A stretch of DNA of 64,000 nt from the NCBI GenBank assembly GCA_963806535.1, contig CAWDYC010000004.1, positions 192,001-256,000 on the forward strand, in the 5' to 3' direction. Position numbers and translations under genes: made by a program. The DNA is from Candidatus Bathyarchaeota archaeon. Its GTDB lineage: Archaea; Thermoproteota; Bathyarchaeia; Bathyarchaeales; Bathycorpusculaceae. Below are positions 43,665 to 50,092 of the stretch, one piece after another; within the stretch, counting starts at the first letter, position 1; every line of letters starts with the position of its first letter. The notes under the pieces are model-generated. The model saw nothing but the letters and a program-made list of their open reading frames with translations. It did not search any database and had not been told where the DNA came from.

Positions 43665-44058
43665 ATGCATGCTGGGTTAGCCTTTGTTGTAGGAATTTTA
43701 GTGACCATTGCGGCGTTCCTCTTTTTCGCTGCAATTTCAGGAACAACTTATTATGGCTTAGCAATTTCGGTCGAATTAACCCTTGGAGTGACTCTCATTA
43801 TTGTCGCTTTGATTGTTGCAGCAATATTTTATGTTGGTGTCAAAGCTCAGTTTAGATAGAGTTAAAACAGGGAAAGAAGCCTTAGTCGGGTCCAAAGGTA
43901 TCGCAACGAGCGACTTGAAACCTGAAGGCGAAATACGGGTAATGGGTGAATTCTGGAAAGCTACGGCCAAAGATACCCCAATAGCAGTTGGTCAAGTCGT
44001 GGAAGTTGTCGGTATGGAAGGAATGTTACTTGTCGTAAAACCAGCCTTTACGTCTTGA
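43665..44058 (+). CDS. Short NfeD-family membrane protein (frameshifted); its 3' end is the integration site
   Basis: TM helices plus TGKEALVG.KG....L.PEGE.RV.GEFWKA...VEVVG.EG..LVV OB-fold; original tail VVKPAEQKA* is at 49157-49187. Confidence 0.88.
44030..44046 (+). repeat. attL, 17-bp direct repeat TTGTCGTAAAACCAGCC
   Basis: Identical to 49156-49172; flanking bases differ on both sides. Confidence 0.95.
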
Positions 44059-44078
44059 TAGATTTCTTGTGTTGTCAT
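44030..44078 (-). CDS. Integrase N-terminal fragment int(N): MTTQEIYQDVKAGFTT
   Basis: ATG at 44078 overlaps the RHH stop (ATGA) and runs through attL in the same register as the integrase frame at attR. Confidence 0.8.
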
Positions 44079-44209
44079 TGTTTTTTATCTTCTTTGAAGT
44101 GTTGTTCTAATGCTTGGTTGATGATGTTTGATATGTCGCCTCTTTTGCGGTTTTTTTCTCTTAATTTGTTTTCGTTTTCGGGGGTTATATTAAAAATTAT
44201 TTTTACCAT
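44075..44209 (-). CDS. Ribbon-helix-helix (CopG-like) protein, 44 aa (not in ORF track)
   Basis: MVKIIFNITPENENKLREKNRKRGDISNIINQALEQHFKEDKKQ*; beta-alpha-alpha pattern with S.II..AL. Confidence 0.75.
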   Translation of the reverse strand: MVKIIFNITPENENKLREKNRKRGDISNIINQALEQHFKEDKKQ

Positions 44210-44351
44210 TTTGTTTATTCCTTCATTTATTAGAGTTGTAATTGGATAGCTGAATATATAGATATCTTTGTTTTCTTATTATCTAAGATTGGTTTTTCCT
44301 TTGTTGTTTAATTTCTTATTTGTTGATGGTTTTTTATTTTTCAAGTTTTGT

Positions 44352-44456
44352 TAAGTCCCCTTTCTAAGATAGAAGGGGATTTAGGGGCAAGTGTGATAGC
44401 ATACTATAACCTATCTTTTATCAAGAGGTTGGGAAGGAGAGGGATGCTCTCTCCTT
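44352..44456. other. Two hairpins in the element's non-coding region; candidate replication origin
   Basis: Stems 44352-44366/44370-44383 and 44434-44443/44447-44456. Confidence 0.4.
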
Positions 44457-44650
44457 AGTTGTTTTACGTGTGAGTGTCTCTCTCGTTTTTGATGGTTCTG
44501 GGTTTGAGTTAGTTAAATTAGAATATTTTTAGTTTGTTTGTTGGTTTTATTGTATTTTTGTTAGTTTGTAAGTGTGTTTGTTTGTATCTTAATAGTTACG
44601 ATATGTTTAAATTATCATTTGATAAGTTATTAGTCAAGGGGTGATTTAGT

Positions 44651-44746
44651 TTGAAGTGTGAAAGGTGTGGTGTTGAGTTAATCGGGGAAGGTATTGTTTT
44701 CTGTTCTGGTTGTGCAGAAAAAATTTACAGTTCTTTGTCCAGTTAA
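44651..44746 (+). CDS. Tiny zinc-ribbon protein, 31 aa (not in ORF track)
   Basis: GGGGTGA RBS; MKCERCGVELIGEGIVFCSGCAEKIYSSLSS*. Confidence 0.6.
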   Translation: MKCERCGVELIGEGIVFCSGCAEKIYSSLSS

Positions 44747-44750
44747 CTTT

Positions 44751-45434
44751 TTAATTTTCTTTTTTTGTTTCTTTGTTTTTTAGTAGCTCTTCAGTGAATT
44801 CTTTTATTAATTCTTTCATTGATCTATCCCAGTTTATGGTTATTTCTTCATTGAGTTTTTCCCAATTTATAGCTGTTTTAGCGTTCAGTTTTGCTTGGTC
44901 TATTATACATTGGTTAATATCTACTTCTTTTATGATTTTGGTTGTTGCTTCTATTAGTATTTGAGTAAACCATTCGTAATTTAGCCATAGATGCAATTTT
45001 GTAAGGGTTTCTATTTCTTTAAGAGGTATATCTTTATGATTTTGAATTGTTTTTAAAAGTCTTATGAAATTGGTTTGATTCCATTTGTTGATTAGGTCTA
45101 AGATAATTAATGGATTGTTTTTTGTTTCCTTTAGTATTGCGTCTATTTTGTTTGAAAATTTTTTCATAATTTCCATTGTTTTTGTGGCTTCTATAATATC
45201 AGATTGGGCTTTGTAGAGGACTGGAATTGGATATTTTTCGCTTTCGATGTCTCTTTTTCTGTCAATTAGACCGTCTTTGGTTAGCTGTTTTAGGTGTTTG
45301 TGTAGTGTTCTTGGGCTTAGTTTGGTAGTTTTTTTTAGGTTGTTGGTTCGGTGCCATTGTCCGTCGGATAGTGCTTTCCAGATTTTTGTTTGTGTTTCGT
45401 AAAATGCTTTTGTGTTTTTGTTTGATTGTATCAT
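44751..45434 (-). CDS. Winged-helix regulator of the element
   Basis: IWKALSDG.WH....LKKTTKLSPRTLHKHLKQLTKDGLI....YP.PVLY. Confidence 0.75.
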   Translation of the reverse strand: MIQSNKNTKAFYETQTKIWKALSDGQWHRTNNLKKTTKLSPRTLHKHLKQLTKDGLIDRKRDIESEKYPIPVLYKAQSDIIEATKTMEIMKKFSNKIDAILKETKNNPLIILDLINKWNQTNFIRLLKTIQNHKDIPLKEIETLTKLHLWLNYEWFTQILIEATTKIIKEVDINQCIIDQAKLNAKTAINWEKLNEEITINWDRSMKELIKEFTEELLKNKETKKEN

Positions 45435-45532
45435 TGTTTTTTACCTTTTTGATGGATGGGTTTACACCTTTTATGAGTTTATGTAGTGTATACTTATTAA
45501 TATTTTCTCGGTTGTTTTTTCGAGGATTAAAT

Positions 45533-45769
45533 ATGGTTAAACTTACTATTGATGTTAAAAAGTTGCTTTTTTTAAAAGTGTTGGTTTTAGTTGTTTCGTC
45601 GGTTTGTTTGTTGGCGATTTCATTGGTTTTTAGTTATGATTATTTTTTTGGATTTGATATTTTGGGTTTTAATCTTAGTTTAGGTTTTTCTGGTTTGCTT
45701 TTCTGTATAGGGATTTTTGAGTTGGCGTGGGCTTTAGCTTTAGTTAGTAGATTTCGGGGGAGAGTTTAA
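45533..45769 (+). CDS. Small two-TM membrane protein of the element
   Basis: GAGG RBS, MVKLTIDVKK start, two hydrophobic helices, basic C-terminus. Confidence 0.65.
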   Translation: MVKLTIDVKKLLFLKVLVLVVSSVCLLAISLVFSYDYFFGFDILGFNLSLGFSGLLFCIGIFELAWALALVSRFRGRV

Positions 45770-45770
45770 A

Positions 45771-46430
45771 ATGGTTTCAAAATATATTGCCCTTCCTTTT
45801 ACAATTATTATTTTGCTTAGTATATTTTCGCTTTTAGGGTTAGGTTCTGGTTCATTAACTCAAAGTATGTCTGGTTCTGGTGGATATGGTTCGGGTCAGG
45901 ATGCAAAAAATCCTGGTAATTATACTGGTTGGGTAGATATTTCAGGGCGGTTAATTTTAAATTCTAACGCTGAAGTGGTTGTAAATGATTCTGGTGGTTA
46001 TTTAACATCTGTAACAATCGGCTTCAATTATGGCGGTGGTTTCAATTACTATTGGAACAATGGTACTGGCAAATATTTGTTGACTGAAGTCGGAGCAATC
46101 ACTCAGGGTAATGGTCAAGAGTCAACTGGTGCACTTCAATGGAATTTGAGCACCAGTTTAGGGTTGCTTGTGATTGTGGTTTTGATTATGGGTGTTGGTG
46201 TTGTTGTTGGCTTTCATGTTTTTGGATCAGGTGAAAATGACGTTTCTGTTGGTATGGTGCTGAAAAATACGGGTTTTCTTATGCTTTGGGCGGTTTTTAG
46301 TTCTTTATCGCTTCATTTACTGACACTAATTCCAGATGGGCTTGGTGATATTTTATATTTTGTTTTAACTGGAATGCTAACCATTGGATTAATCGACAGT
46401 ATTGGGCATCCGTCTGGGGGTTATGATTGA
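45771..46430 (+). CDS. Membrane protein with signal/anchor helix, Gly/Asn-rich ectodomain and three C-terminal TMs (candidate virion protein)
   Basis: Hydropathy pattern; several N-x-S/T sequons (NYT, NDS, NGT, NLS). Confidence 0.7.
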   Translation: MVSKYIALPFTIIILLSIFSLLGLGSGSLTQSMSGSGGYGSGQDAKNPGNYTGWVDISGRLILNSNAEVVVNDSGGYLTSVTIGFNYGGGFNYYWNNGTGKYLLTEVGAITQGNGQESTGALQWNLSTSLGLLVIVVLIMGVGVVVGFHVFGSGENDVSVGMVLKNTGFLMLWAVFSSLSLHLLTLIPDGLGDILYFVLTGMLTIGLIDSIGHPSGGYD

Positions 46431-46672
46431 TGGGTGCTTCTGTTGTTGTTGGTTCTGTAATTGTGAATAAGGTTGAAAAAGATCGTTTGGCTGTTTGTCC
46501 TTATGCTGAACAGATTGCAGTTCGTTTTGGTGTTCCCCTTTGCCTTTGTTCTTTAGGGTTTGGGGCTTGTCCGTCTCATGGTAGGCGGGCGAAATTTAAG
46601 TTTCATTTTACTGGTTTTGAAGTTGTTTGGGTTTGTGATAGGCTGGATGGGTTTCCAGATTTGGAGCGATGA
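46427..46672 (+). CDS. Small Cys-rich hypothetical protein
   Basis: VCPYA...CLCSL...CP...WVC; overlaps the upstream stop and precedes rep. Confidence 0.55.
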   Translation: MMGASVVVGSVIVNKVEKDRLAVCPYAEQIAVRFGVPLCLCSLGFGACPSHGRRAKFKFHFTGFEVVWVCDRLDGFPDLER

Positions 46673-46678
46673 TTTTGT

Positions 46679-47869
46679 TTGGGTAAGCGTGAAGAGGATG
46701 AGCTATGGTCTGGTTATGTTTCTTCTTTAGATAAGTCTGAGAGAGTTAAGGCTCGTCAGTGTAAGCATGATTTTGACGTCAAGATGTTTGGTGAGCCTGT
46801 TCATAGATTGACGGGTCAGAAACCTAAAGAGGTTAAGTTTGTTGAAGTTGTTGATGATTCTTCTGAGTCTGAGCCTGATGGTTATGCTCCCATTATTATG
46901 GGTTACCAACGTGTTGGTCATGGTAAAAAGACTAACGATAAGTGTGGTCAATTTATGGGTAATAAGGTTTGTTTGCGTACTGAGTTGCATCATAATAGTT
47001 TGGATGGTTCTATTCATGAGGGTGATGTTTTTGTTCGTAAGAAACATCATCATTGTTTTAATTGGCGTTGTCCAATTTGTTATAAATATTCTTCTGCGGT
47101 TCGTGAAGCTGGCCGTATAAAGCAACGTATTAATGAAGCTTCTAAGCGGTTTGGTGCGAAGCCTGAGCATGGGATTGTTAGTTTTTCAGAGGAAGATAGG
47201 GTTTTGTCTGTGGAAAAGTTGCTTGCTAAAGCTGTTAAGGGTCTTTATGCTCGGGGAATAACAGGTGGTTCTCTTATCCTACATTTGGAGCGTTATCGTT
47301 CTTCTGACTTTGTTCGGGGGGGCATTCGGCATATGAGTGAATGGTATTTTTCGCCTCACGTACATTTTTTGGGTTTTTTTAAAAATGAGTATGGTCGTTG
47401 TCGGAATTGTAAGTGCTATGATGAGTGGGGTTCTAAGAGTACGAAGGGGCATACTCGTCATACTAATCATGGGGGTTCTGCTTGTTTAGGCTGTTCTGGT
47501 TTTGAAGGTTTGACCAGAAGGTTGTATGAGAAGGATGGTTTAATCGTTAAGGTTATGGGTGAGCGAAAGAGTATTTTTGGGACTGCATACTATGAACTTA
47601 ATCATGCTTCGGTTAAGGTTGATAAGAAGCGTTTTCAGATTGTTCATTGGTTTGGTAATTGTAGTAAGCGTAAATTGAAGGTTGTTTTTGAAAAGAATAA
47701 GCAGGTTTGTCCTTGCTGTTTGCATGAGTTGGTTGATGCTCGTTATTTTGGTTCTATGGAGTTTGTAACTTCTTTGGATTCACCTTTTTATGAGCGTGAT
47801 ATGTGGCTTCCAATGAATGAGTATGGTCGTGATGTTTGGGTTGAGAAGGCTACGTGTGGTTCGGGTTAG
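46679..47869 (+). CDS. HUH-superfamily rolling-circle replication initiator with Zn-binding motifs
   Basis: HHCFNWRCPIC, motif 1 EHGIVS, motif 2 YFSPHVHFLG (HUH), motif 3 TAYYELNH, C-terminal CPCC. Confidence 0.82.
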   Translation: MGKREEDELWSGYVSSLDKSERVKARQCKHDFDVKMFGEPVHRLTGQKPKEVKFVEVVDDSSESEPDGYAPIIMGYQRVGHGKKTNDKCGQFMGNKVCLRTELHHNSLDGSIHEGDVFVRKKHHHCFNWRCPICYKYSSAVREAGRIKQRINEASKRFGAKPEHGIVSFSEEDRVLSVEKLLAKAVKGLYARGITGGSLILHLERYRSSDFVRGGIRHMSEWYFSPHVHFLGFFKNEYGRCRNCKCYDEWGSKSTKGHTRHTNHGGSACLGCSGFEGLTRRLYEKDGLIVKVMGERKSIFGTAYYELNHASVKVDKKRFQIVHWFGNCSKRKLKVVFEKNKQVCPCCLHELVDARYFGSMEFVTSLDSPFYERDMWLPMNEYGRDVWVEKATCGSG

Positions 47870-47881
47870 TGGTAACTCTGA

Positions 47882-48163
47882 ATGCTAATGGAGTGTTATT
47901 TGATTATGAAGTATGAAACTTTGAGGAGAATTGAAAAAAATGGTGTTTATATTGCTGAATTTGACCCCAAGGTTCATTGTAAATATAACCCGAATGTTTT
48001 ATGCATTAGATTATATCTTGGTAAGTTTGAGTGTTCTGGTTTTGTTGATAATAAGAAACAGTTTAAGGAAAAACATGAAATGGAAATTGTTTTTTGGCAT
48101 TTGTTTTGTGGTGGTGTTGATGGGTTTTTTGGTTCATTGGTGTTCATATTTATTTGTGTTTAA
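47882..48163 (+). CDS. Hypothetical protein of the element
   Basis: ORF directly after rep; the C-terminal part overlaps a second hydrophobic reading frame. Confidence 0.45.
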   Translation: MLMECYLIMKYETLRRIEKNGVYIAEFDPKVHCKYNPNVLCIRLYLGKFECSGFVDNKKQFKEKHEMEIVFWHLFCGGVDGFFGSLVFIFICV

Positions 48164-48181
48164 ATTGTTTTTATGTTTTGC

Positions 48182-49172
48182 TTATTTTCTTATTCTGAAG
48201 TATTGGTATCCGTCTGCTTCTGTTATTTTCTGGTAGCCTGCGTCTGATAGTTCTATGATGCGTTTTCCTGTGTTTGGTTCTCCTAATTTTACTGCTTCGG
48301 TTTTGTATTCTTCTGGTTCGTCTAAGTTTATGCTTCTTATGTAGCCCAATGTTGTTTCAAGTTGTTTGTGTCTCATAAATCTCATGGTGGCTATTGGGTC
48401 GTGTTTGCCTTCGTGTTTGTAGAATTGTTCTCCTGCGTAGTTTCTTAGGTTTTTTAGGTTTATTAGGTCTAATTCGGGTTTGCATAGTTTTTTTGCTATT
48501 TTTCGTCTGGCTTGTCGCCATGCTTCGCCTTGTGCTTTTGCTTCTGGAAATGGTTGTTCTTTGTTTGTTGTTTTTGATAGGTAAATTCTGAGCATTTCTG
48601 CGGTTTCTGATTTTAGTTTATAGCTTCCGTTGTTGTGTCCTTTTGTGCCTGTTACGGTTAGTTTTCCTTCTTCTTTGTCTATCATTGTTCCTTTTATTCT
48701 GTGTAGTTCTTCGGGTTCTATTGCGGTTTGTGATAGGGTTGTGAATATTGCGGTGTATTTGGTTGATGCCGTGTTTATGATTAGATTCACGTTTTCTTTT
48801 GATGGGATTAGTGGTATTGGGGCTTCGTATTCCATTTTTGGCTTGTCGAATGGGATTTGGTTTTGTTCGCAAAATACGCTGTAATGTTCTAAGATTCTCT
48901 TTTTATAGCCGTTGCTTAGTGTTTTGTTTTTCATGTCGGGTCTTGAGCCTTTTAGCTGTGTTAGAATGTAGAGAAGTGTTTTTGTGCTGTCGAATAGATT
49001 GCAGTTGTCTGCTAATACTGCGAAACTGCTTTGATATTTTGAGATGGTTTGTTGGCTTCTGCCTTTTAGTTTGACTGCTTCGATTGTGTTTTCGATTGCT
49101 GTTTTGGTTCTTTCGTCTAATGGTTTTCTGGCTACTTGTGCGAAATAATGGCGGGTTGTCGTAAAACCAGCC
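48182..49172 (-). CDS. Tyrosine recombinase/integrase, large C-terminal fragment int(C)
   Basis: GTKG, KNLRNY, MRHKQLETTLGY catalytic motifs; frame is open for 79 codons upstream of Met 48934, up to attR, with no ATG/GTG/TTG. Confidence 0.9.
49156..49172 (+). repeat. attR, 17-bp direct repeat TTGTCGTAAAACCAGCC
   Basis: Identical to 44030-44046. Confidence 0.95.
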
Positions 49173-49222: not shown

Positions 49223-50092
49223 ATGTTGTCAGAAGTTTTAGCTCCAGTAGTAGGATTCATAGGAATCGTAATTGCTCTTTTTCTGTTAAGCGGTATACGC
49301 GTGCTCAGAGAATGGGAGCGAATGCCCGTTTTAAGACTTGGACGCTATGTCGGTTTAAAAGGTCCTGGAATAATCTATCTTGTTCCATTAATTGACAGAG
49401 CACCACTAAAAATCTCAACGAGATTAGACACTATCCAATTCCGCACAGAATCAACCTTAACCAAAGACAACGTTCCGGTAAATGTTGATTCAGTATTATA
49501 CATGAAACCTGTGGATTTGGAAAAGGCTGTGTTGGCCGTTGAAAATTACTATCAAGCGACTCAATTAGCTTCACAAACGACCTTGCGGGAAGTCATCGGC
49601 AAAGTAAGTCTCAACGAGTTGCTAGCTGAACGGGAAAAAGTTGGAGCGCGCCTGCGAGAAATCATCGATGAAAAAACTGAGTCATGGGGAATCAAAGTTA
49701 CATCCGTTGAAGTCCGAGACGTTATCATCCCTGCCAACCTTCAAGACGCTATGAGCCGCCAAGCACAAGCTGAACGAGAACGAATTGCAAGAGTAACCTT
49801 AGCCACAGCTGAGTTCGAAGCATCGGCAAAAATGATTGAGGCAGCAAAAATGTATGAGGCAAGTCCAGAAGGCTTGAGACTTAGATGGATGAACATACTC
49901 TATGAGTTGGGTCAGCAATCTCAAACAAATACGATAATGTTGGTGCCTGCATCTATGCCCGAGGCAGGTTGGCCGCCAATCGGCACTTACGGCTTCAAAG
50001 ACCTAACCACGGCACAACAAGCTCAAGCGGCAAAGAAGAAGCCATTGGTGAATCAAGAGTCGCCCCCACAAACATCTGAACAACCAGAGTAA
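49223..50092 (+). CDS. Stomatin/SPFH (band 7, slipin) protein
   Basis: RLGRY...GPG, LTKDNVPVNVD, QTTLREVIG, WGIKVTSVEVRDV, AMSRQAQAERER. Confidence 0.95.
   Translation: MLSEVLAPVVGFIGIVIALFLLSGIRVLREWERMPVLRLGRYVGLKGPGIIYLVPLIDRAPLKISTRLDTIQFRTESTLTKDNVPVNVDSVLYMKPVDLEKAVLAVENYYQATQLASQTTLREVIGKVSLNELLAEREKVGARLREIIDEKTESWGIKVTSVEVRDVIIPANLQDAMSRQAQAERERIARVTLATAEFEASAKMIEAAKMYEASPEGLRLRWMNILYELGQQSQTNTIMLVPASMPEAGWPPIGTYGFKDLTTAQQAQAAKKKPLVNQESPPQTSEQPE

Follow-up and report, generated by a model that had tools for sequence, protein, structure and literature searches.

The split integrase gene and its attachment sites

We analyse here a window of 64,000 nucleotides, i.e. the whole stretch from position 192,001 to 256,000 on the forward strand of contig CAWDYC010000004.1 of a Candidatus Bathyarchaeota archaeon (GenBank assembly GCA_963806535.1), and concentrate on its region 44030-49172, which is very probably a 5126-bp mobile element integrated by recombination between an attachment site inside its own integrase gene (attP in int) and a site at the end of the host gene nfeD (attB). 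An initial annotation of the window had proposed that the integrase gene is split by its own attachment (att) site, and both parts are indeed seen, namely a start-less 3' part, int(C), and an in-register 5' part, int(N), which together give 340 amino acids (aa). The features concerned are as follows (window coordinates, strand, description).

43665..44058, plus: host nfeD; membrane part at 43665-43859 and NfeD C-terminal domain at 43813-44058, in different frames
44030..44046, no strand: attL core, left 17-bp copy; the plus strand encodes the last nfeD residues LVVKPA, the minus strand K-AGFTT of int
44046..44078, minus: int(N), ATG plus 10 codons (MTTQEIYQDVK) leading into attL in the register of int(C); counterpart in 33 of 38 relatives
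48182..49171, minus: int(C), tyrosine recombinase, 329 codons plus stop; open frame with no ATG, GTG or TTG before codon 80
49156..49172, no strand: attR core, right 17-bp copy, at the 5' end of int(C)
49223..50092, plus: host stomatin gene (SPFH/Band 7), directly 3' of nfeD in relatives and here split off by the element

The two att cores are exact copies of a 17-bp direct repeat, TTGTCGTAAAACCAGCC, at a start-to-start distance of 5126 bp. Two 17-bp matches occur in none of 100 dinucleotide-preserving shuffles of the window, and these are the only exact copies in the whole 2.95-Mb genome, where the element itself is present once (the assembly is 91.75% complete); the bracketing of a 5126-bp element by this repeat, as first annotated, is thus confirmed. 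The repeat also coincides exactly with the border between host-like and element-like sequence as set by the relatives. Over the element (44000-49000) the GC skew ranges from +0.27 to +0.47 and the AT skew from -0.18 to -0.54, alike for both gene orientations, while the adjoining host windows have a GC skew of -0.16 to +0.08 and an AT skew never below -0.11. The plus strand of the element is G- and T-rich, and the strand bias stops at the att sites; because the shift spans the element only, it delimits the foreign stretch independently of the repeats. As for inverted repeats around the att core, none is reported at attL. A candidate picked by eye, CGTAAA (44034-44039) and TTTACG (44047-44052) around ACCAGCC, is rejected, as chance alone would account for inverted repeats of 6 bp within 70 bp. 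Elsewhere in the genome, a single copy of the core with two mismatches lies unoccupied on contig 11 (120833-120849; L157:1501-1517, L numbers denoting loci), within the 3' part of an unrelated 160-aa minus-strand open reading frame (ORF).

On the minus strand, the int(C) frame runs from 49171 to a stop codon at 48182 and begins with AGFTTTRHYF (AGFTTTRHYFAQVARKPLDERTK). Its earliest ATG, GTG or TTG is the ATG at 48934, codon 80, so that 79 start-less codons follow attR; beyond attR the frame continues for just four host codons, none of them a start codon, and then meets a stop, which leaves 83 codons upstream of Met80 without any such codon. At attL, the same strand reads from ATG(44078) as MTTQEIYQDVK-AGFTT, then SNIPSIPTTSTT and a stop, i.e. 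the integrated int(N) frame terminates 12 codons past the repeat, antisense to nfeD. Since position 44045 matches 49171, both repeat copies are read in one register, and recombination through the repeat would give a 340-aa integrase frame on the excised circle (11 + 329 aa), with the att core at codons 11-17 and the predicted attP junction MTTQEIYQDVKAGFTTTRHYF. The ATG of int(N) (44078-44076) overlaps, as ATGA, the TGA (44077-44075) of a 44-aa ORF upstream. This overlap had been annotated as an operon with a ribbon-helix-helix (RHH) gene; the overlap stands, and the RHH label is weak, the 44-aa ORF having no Pfam match and reaching an RHH_1 cluster of the Atlas only at rank 27 (score 0.88). 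The same arrangement of ORF and int(N), with a 71%-identical homologue of the 44-aa ORF, is found in L057. As L057 is the only one among 34 int(N)-bearing relatives to have it, the RHH-int operon is not a trait of the family.

The host locus and its empty sites

The left flank of the element ends in the NfeD C-terminal domain (PF01957, E = 6.5e-18), and the right flank opens, 50 bp past the repeat, with the stomatin gene (SPFH/Band 7, 6.4e-34). We searched for stomatin in 41 genomes (that of the window and 40 related ones), and aligned the left flank plus repeat and the repeat plus right flank separately to 29 loci of the other genomes. In six of them (L005, L006, L007, L009, L010 and L013) the alignments of the left and right flanks adjoin without a gap and share exactly the 17 bases of the repeat. 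In a total of ten loci (L005-L014) nfeD ends with ...VVKP[A/T]E(Q/H/E)K(A/L) and stomatin follows directly. These ten contiguous nfeD-stomatin loci of relatives are empty sites, and the element-free relatives with contiguous nfeD(VVKPAEQKA)-stomatin that the annotation had predicted do exist, with VVKP[A/T]EQKA-type ends. They already hold one copy of the repeat, with 0-2 mismatches in L009 and L012. The insertion changes the C-terminus of NfeD from ...KPAEQKA to ...KPAFTS, i.e. the last four residues EQKA become FTS, and moves stomatin 5.1 kb away from nfeD.

In addition, the nfeD gene of the window has one extra base near 43855 (43850-43860) relative to four congeners, creating a TAG and a frame change (...CAGTTTAGATAGAGTT... 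in the window, ...CAGTTTAGAC-GAGTA... in L006). Either the assembly is in error here, or nfeD is truly a pseudogene in the only genome whose nfeD-stomatin operon is interrupted.

The split layout in related elements

The relatives of the integrase comprise 105 proteins and 29 genome loci, plus 249 matches in metagenome contigs of which 80 were kept, making 109 loci. Sixty-two of these have the integrase 5' end on the contig and, downstream of the match, 2.5 kb or more of sequence, and they were searched for an exact direct repeat between the integrase 5' end and the region downstream of the gene. Overall, a repeat of at least 14 bp is found in 38 non-redundant loci, with repeats of 14-36 bp and element sizes of 2.9-7.9 kb. 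An ATG-started frame leading over at least 8 codons into the far repeat in the register of int(C) is present in 33 of the 38, while the other two registers give such a frame in 1 and 3 of 38; the homologous elements, which the annotation had proposed to examine for the same split, thus show it. Among them, L033 has a 16-bp repeat and the int(N) peptide MENPKQETHGIATNPMATDTQKQEKILRIT, and L034 a 14-bp repeat and METQKIETHGITEQTMEKEEENKEAFQRIT. Many int(N) frames close with a similar LLSP/LLRL/QRIT-like motif just ahead of the repeat. The five loci without in-register int(N) are L038, L046, L060, L095 and L096, which may have chance repeats or a degraded far end. Judged by sequence, the window element is one instance of a wider family of Bathyarchaeia elements.

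By eye, 27 of 34 repeats start with GGC-N-N-(G/A)-(T/C) when two host-side bases are counted, a tally over related sequences made without a control. The GGCNNGT-like start is seen at tRNA and protein-gene targets alike (GGCTGGT in the window), which suggests, as a lead only, that a core recognised by the enzyme was kept when targets changed. The minus-strand window repeat GGCTGGTTTTAC resembles AGGCTGGTATACT of L053, L054 and L111.

A further observation concerns the contigs themselves, many of which, from metagenomes, begin 40-350 bp upstream of the att region (L065-L074, L077, L079, L084, L085, L106, L108, L126). Such starts, noted without a control, are what one would see if the coexistence of occupied, empty or circular forms made assemblies break at att sites.

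The integrase family

Nearly all genome loci of integrase relatives (28 of 29) are labelled as Bathyarchaeota or Bathyarchaeia. PF00589 is matched by all 28 family members aligned, with a best E value of 6.1e-12. In the alignment of these 28 proteins the part upstream of Met80 is conserved, with 26 of the 27 homologues spanning residues ~17-79 and the remaining one (P0008) aligned from ~28. The AlphaFold model of the integrase (pLDDT 88) places a confident helical N-terminal domain of the core-binding type (residues 20-103) ahead of the catalytic domain, which is followed by a small beta part (residues ~289-328), and the att-encoded residues 1-14 are disordered in it. Because the residues upstream of Met 48934 are conserved and folded as a core-binding domain, this Met is not the natural start. 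The homologues do not begin there either, all 27 aligned ones being conserved upstream of that position, as the annotation requires. P0004, a protein of 231 aa encoded on one metagenome contig, matches the 329-aa frame of the window (P0001) with 77% identity over 70% of that frame.

The nearest structural neighbours of the model are XerA (Z 17.9), Tn1549 Int (17.2), IntI (16.7) and lambda Int (16.5); together with Cre, these align with Z of 14-18 over integrase residues ~18-293. A search of the Protein Data Bank (PDB) sequences with the family profile likewise gives XerA (1.6e-7 and 1.4e-5) and IntI4 (2.8e-3), and the same search with the single sequence P0001 gives nothing at E<=10. Tyrosine recombinases have the catalytic set R-K-H-R-H/W-Y. 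The residues K177, R243, R267, H268 and Y277 are invariant in the 28-protein alignment and may have catalytic roles, an assignment made by eye. The first catalytic Arg would presumably stand three residues before a conserved E-L, within P0001 residues ~148-156, a placement also made by eye.

Beyond these relatives, a tblastn search finds no match in the phage collection, and pattern matches in IMG/VR include none that was confirmed; among plasmids, the sole match is a Runella recombinase of 31% identity. No related integrase above 28% identity is found elsewhere in the genome of the window, and in 100 other species genomes of the genus the best match is 48% identical. Overall, the sequences place the integrase in a Bathyarchaeia-associated PF00589 family, most members of which use antiparallel tRNA 5' halves and one group of which uses protein-coding genes.

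Integration targets and the integrase tree

ARAGORN calls a tRNA gene overlapping the projected integrase 5' end in 34 loci, always antiparallel, and in all 34 the integrase is at most 45% identical to the window protein. Further loci carry tRNA-antisense peptides, e.g. WWGRWDLNPGSPTPQAGILN. In L036, L100, L106, L115 and L123 the repeat is the 5' half of the antiparallel tRNA, from the anticodon arm to the 5' end. As the repeat covers this half, a complete tRNA copy adjoins int(C) and the element DNA lies upstream of the tRNA. In some loci, among others L041, L043 and L049-L054, a tRNA intron interrupts the repeat on the int(C) side, the far side being contiguous.

The closer relatives occupy protein-coding genes. 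The targets of this lineage are cdc48, dph2, stomatin, nfeD, endoV and others, and those of the relatives are listed below.

cdc48 3' end: L034, L075, L076, L081; 723-aa ORF directly upstream; Pfam confirmed for L075
Diphthamide-synthesis gene (dph2) 3' end: L086, L087; Pfam for L086
Stomatin 3' end, nfeD intact: L078
Endonuclease V, antisense, inside the gene: L064:3970-4410; the int(C) side keeps profile positions 69-198 of 198
Histone-deacetylase-family gene, antisense: L080:661-1257; element within the gene, not at its 3' end
TFS-like zinc ribbon, adjoining: L088; weak match

For L033, a gene for a TFE-type zinc-ribbon protein is a doubtful candidate target: by eye the right flank resembles its C-terminal half, but there is no Pfam match, and the left flank has a stop 25 codons upstream. 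At the cdc48-type sites int is co-directional with the host gene, and in ten loci the host 3' end gives an in-frame ATG (MVQE[L/F]HA...) a few codons before the repeat (L034:5058-5102, L075:7923-7967, L076, L081 and six further contigs). In L034 the element's own int(N) is found at the far repeat (L034:11358-11448). Thus int(C) has a host-derived start at cdc48 sites, while the window int(C) has none.

We built a quick IQ-TREE tree of 96 rows from the window and the 109 loci, with att-encoded residues trimmed and 14 rows left off because they were duplicates, truncated or too short. A single well-supported branch (SH-aLRT 96) parts 34 rows (23 protein-gene, 11 unknown and no tRNA targets) from 62 (52 tRNA, 10 unknown and no protein-gene targets). 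In these counts, 10 of the 23 protein-gene labels (L065-L068, L070, L072-L074, L084, L085) rest on a shared host-derived upstream peptide or sequence only, some tRNA labels are peptide patterns only, and kindred rows are not independent of one another. Since the tree is unrooted, it does not give the direction of the target switch. The contrast drawn in the annotation, between the tRNA genes used by split integrases and nfeD, is therefore seen within the family itself, with distant relatives at tRNA genes and a sister group including the window element at protein-coding genes.

Comparison with known systems

Like the integrases of SSV1 (ORF D-335), pTN3 and pT26-2, the window element has attP inside the int frame, a split into int(N) and int(C), and an int antiparallel to its target. 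It differs from them in protein family (PF00589, with no PF16795), in the att codons (11-17 here, about 64-78 in SSV1), in the target (the 3' end of protein-coding nfeD here, tRNA genes for SSV-type integrases), in the hosts (Bathyarchaeia here, hyperthermophilic Sulfolobales and Thermococcales there) and in being a 5-kb Rep-encoding replicon. According to PMC8371274, a 2021 review on archaeal tyrosine recombinases, the suicidal integrases of SSV, pTN3-like and pT26-2-like elements all belong to PF16795, probably go back to a single event and are known only in archaea; the survey in PMC7253208, as far as its pertinent sections go, finds the att sites of all its suicidal integrases in tRNA genes. 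In our analysis PF16795 is matched at E<=1 by none of the 28 family members, while SSV1 Int as positive control gives 1.5e-61 (and PF07935 at 2.6e-34). The comparison of the family with SSV1 Int by hhalign has a probability of 1.5%, SSV1 Int is absent at E<=10 from the family-profile search of PDB sequences, and SSV1 Int structures are not among the structural matches listed for the integrase model, which is not exclusionary. The element thus appears by its sequence to work like an SSV-type integrase, yet it lacks PF16795. Regarding the independent evolution in Bathyarchaeia suggested in the annotation, a separate family is borne out (no PF16795, negligible hhalign probability, XerA nearest), and independent origin is plausible and unproven; on the sequence comparisons, an origin independent of the SSV1/pTN3 family is the simplest reading and a fairly probable one.

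A six-frame PF16795 search of the genome matches a locus on contig 3, not the window element. There, at 193047-193298 (L158:1432-2315, minus strand), lies a remnant of an SSV-type integrase with 32.5 bits, over the cut-off, which is split into ORFs of 140 and 172 aa, the first opening with the tRNA-antisense-like AEPELNRRPLACKA; ARAGORN calls no tRNA at this remnant.

With XerA (PDB 4a8e, 5hxy), the nearest solved protein by both profile and structure, the integrase has the tyrosine recombinase architecture of two domains in common. The gene of XerA, a resolvase acting at chromosomal dif, is intact; the present protein belongs to a mobile element, its gene spans its own recombination site, and it carries a further beta-rich part at the C-terminus. 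In the pNOB8 type (type II), att lies outside int and the gene is intact after integration, and neither holds for the window element. Among the thaumarchaeal elements of Krupovic et al. 2019 (PMC6563490), the consulted portion reports 14 of 68 in the 3'-distal parts of protein genes and a median att of 17 bp, and states that in NitEve-E3 an SSV1-like integrase is split on integration. The short att is shared with our family, and so is a diphthamide-synthesis gene among the targets (here, of relatives); in contrast, that portion of PMC6563490 draws no connection between protein-coding targets and the split layout, and its hosts and integrase family are others. Per-element target tables of PMC6563490 and PMC7253208 aside, we found no earlier description in the literature of integrases split in this way, either from Bathyarchaeia or with a protein-coding target. 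Protein-coding targets as such were known before for archaeal elements, and the combination of such targets with the split layout, or the Bathyarchaeia family, appears not to have been described.

Mechanism and alternative explanations

The following mechanism would account for the layout. The free form would be a 5126-bp circle, probably replicated by a HUH-like Rep, on which the 44-aa ORF and the complete 340-aa integrase form one operon. The integrase would recombine two identical 17-bp cores, one within codons 11-17 of its own gene and the other at the nfeD end, and the integration would part the promoter, the start codon and the first 11 codons from the remaining 329. Afterwards the promoter, the 44-aa ORF and int(N) would point outward across attL, and int(C) would be start-less. 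The integrated copy could then make no full-length integrase, and excision would need integrase in trans or an unconventional expression. As there is no helper integrase in the 91.75%-complete assembly, the copy may be trapped at present. The term 'suicidal' in its functional sense, with Int(C) inactive, would follow from the missing start codon.

Several observations weigh against this picture of a self-splitting integrase. The 329-aa frame has its best match in P0003, with 59% identity over 95% of the frame, and no close relative of the element is found. The window integrase scores 22.3 bits against PF00589, below the gathering cut-off of 27.1 bits, and at the canonical position of the first catalytic Arg the alignment has, by eye, E, S, A, Q or G and no conserved Arg. 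Because only 11 codons are removed, the loss of function would rest on the missing start codon and not on a large deletion; the repeat has 17 bp, compared with 40-50 bp for known suicidal integrases in the part of PMC8371274 that gives their lengths. In addition, terminal overlaps of 15-300 bp, expected of circular relatives, occur in none of the 80 metagenome contigs, no contiguous int(N)-att-int(C) gene is recognised on any contig, and none of the loci examined has another element at the nfeD site.

The short loss also fits a conventional integrase of the lambda or pNOB8 type, starting at Met 48934 or at a non-canonical codon, with att in the 5' untranslated region and the ATG at 44078 a coincidence, and gene callers do give proteins of 250 aa (P0002) and 253 aa (P0007, from L033). 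Against it stand the conservation of residues 17-79 in 26 of 27 homologues and from ~28 in the last, the alignment of the N-terminal helical domain with XerA, lambda Int and Tn1549 Int, the in-register ATG frame of 33 of 38 relatives against 1 and 3 in controls, and the 83 start-less codons upstream of Met80, which make such an integrase very improbable. The database entries of 250 and 253 aa stem from gene calling on integrated copies, and the split layout explains such truncated, start-shifted integrase calls in Bathyarchaeia genomes. Still harder to credit is a 17-bp repeat that is a target-site duplication of the transposase type or a product of chance. In favour of this are the shortness of the repeat and the lack of any significant inverted repeat reported around it; however, no shuffle out of 100 reproduces it, it sits exactly at the host/element border set by relatives, the empty sites already hold one copy, the element encodes no recombinase besides the tyrosine recombinase, and the repeats of relatives (14-36 bp) match tRNA genes.

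A more serious alternative, though in our view still an unlikely one, is a dead relic, which integrated as described and is now permanently trapped and decaying, so that the split would be the scar of a past event instead of a switch that works. It agrees with the absence of a second copy and of any integrase above 28% identity in the 91.75%-complete genome, with the absence of a circular form among the 80 metagenome contigs, and with a best match of only 48% in the 100 other species genomes of the genus. However, the repeats are identical, all ORFs of the element are uninterrupted, including the 396-aa Rep and the 329-codon int(C), and the strong strand bias is not eroded; besides, elements with suicidal integrases persist though helper-dependent, as stated in the parts of PMC7253208 and PMC8371274 concerned with them. 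There is finally the view that the integrated copy still yields a working integrase, through a non-canonical start or a host transcript, the split being regulation and not suicide. The lost N-terminus is short, poorly conserved and predicted to be disordered, and the host ATG before the repeat in the ten cdc48-site loci makes a host-started integrase possible there. In the window this is quite unlikely, as the host flank provides four codons without ATG, GTG or TTG and then a stop, and as transcription reading through from the host genes cannot cover int, which runs opposite to nfeD and stomatin.

Returning to the self-splitting integrase, we put forward a wider reading, tentatively and as a whole slightly less likely to be right than wrong. 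Self-splitting integrases would have arisen twice, here in a Xer-like PF00589 family on Rep-encoding Bathyarchaeia elements of 3-8 kb; one lineage would have moved from tRNA 5' halves to protein-coding genes while the GGCNNGT-like core was kept. As part of the same reading, where int and its target run in one direction, as at cdc48, int(C) may even obtain its start codon and its transcription from the host gene, giving a swap of the N-terminus tied to host gene expression and not suicide. A second, unrelated-looking family with the same layout would, if true, make the split layout a recurrent solution and not a one-off. The family lives in mesophilic sediment archaea, has a very short int(N) and includes a lineage at protein-coding genes, and it would supply a natural series for studying how integrases switch targets. 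It is also a family of small integrative replicons missed by virus and plasmid searches, with no confirmed match in IMG/VR and none in the phage collection.

Other genes of the element

Besides the integrase parts, the element encodes the following ORFs.

44075..44209, minus: 44-aa ORF, RHH-like (fold label weak); its TGA overlaps the int(N) ATG
44751..45434, minus: 227-aa protein with N-terminal winged helix-turn-helix (HxlR/MarR-like, borderline scores); one homologue, in L034
45533..45769, plus: 78-aa hydrophobic ORF with two membrane helices by eye; no family match
45771..46430, plus: 219-aa ORF with hydrophobic N-terminus, Gly-rich middle and hydrophobic C-terminal part (by eye); no family match
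46427..46672, plus: 81-aa Cys-rich ORF; weak zinc-ribbon match, homologue in L062
46679..47869, plus: 396-aa protein, probably an initiator of rolling-circle replication of the HUH type; fold matches weak (Z 4-5)
47882..48163, plus: 93-aa ORF; no family match

The 396-aa protein has homologues adjoining int in 44 of the 109 related loci. It has no Pfam match, and its model (pLDDT 80) no Foldseek match at E<=0.001. In an alignment of 34 sequences, H227, H229, Y305 and several Cys pairs are invariant. When the model is compared with all PDB representatives, HUH Rep nuclease domains are enriched among the best rows, with weak matches over residues ~146-336 to SIRV1 ORF119 (Z 5.2), Vientovirus Rep (5.1), RepB (4.5) and, at about 4.2-4.4, MVM NS1, AAV5 Rep and a nanovirus Rep; the Atlas lead is to Rep_1 clusters. 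The protein is probably a rolling-circle initiator. The strand bias of the element is compatible with asymmetric (rolling-circle) replication; the Rep reading would fit this bias and would imply a circular replicative form.

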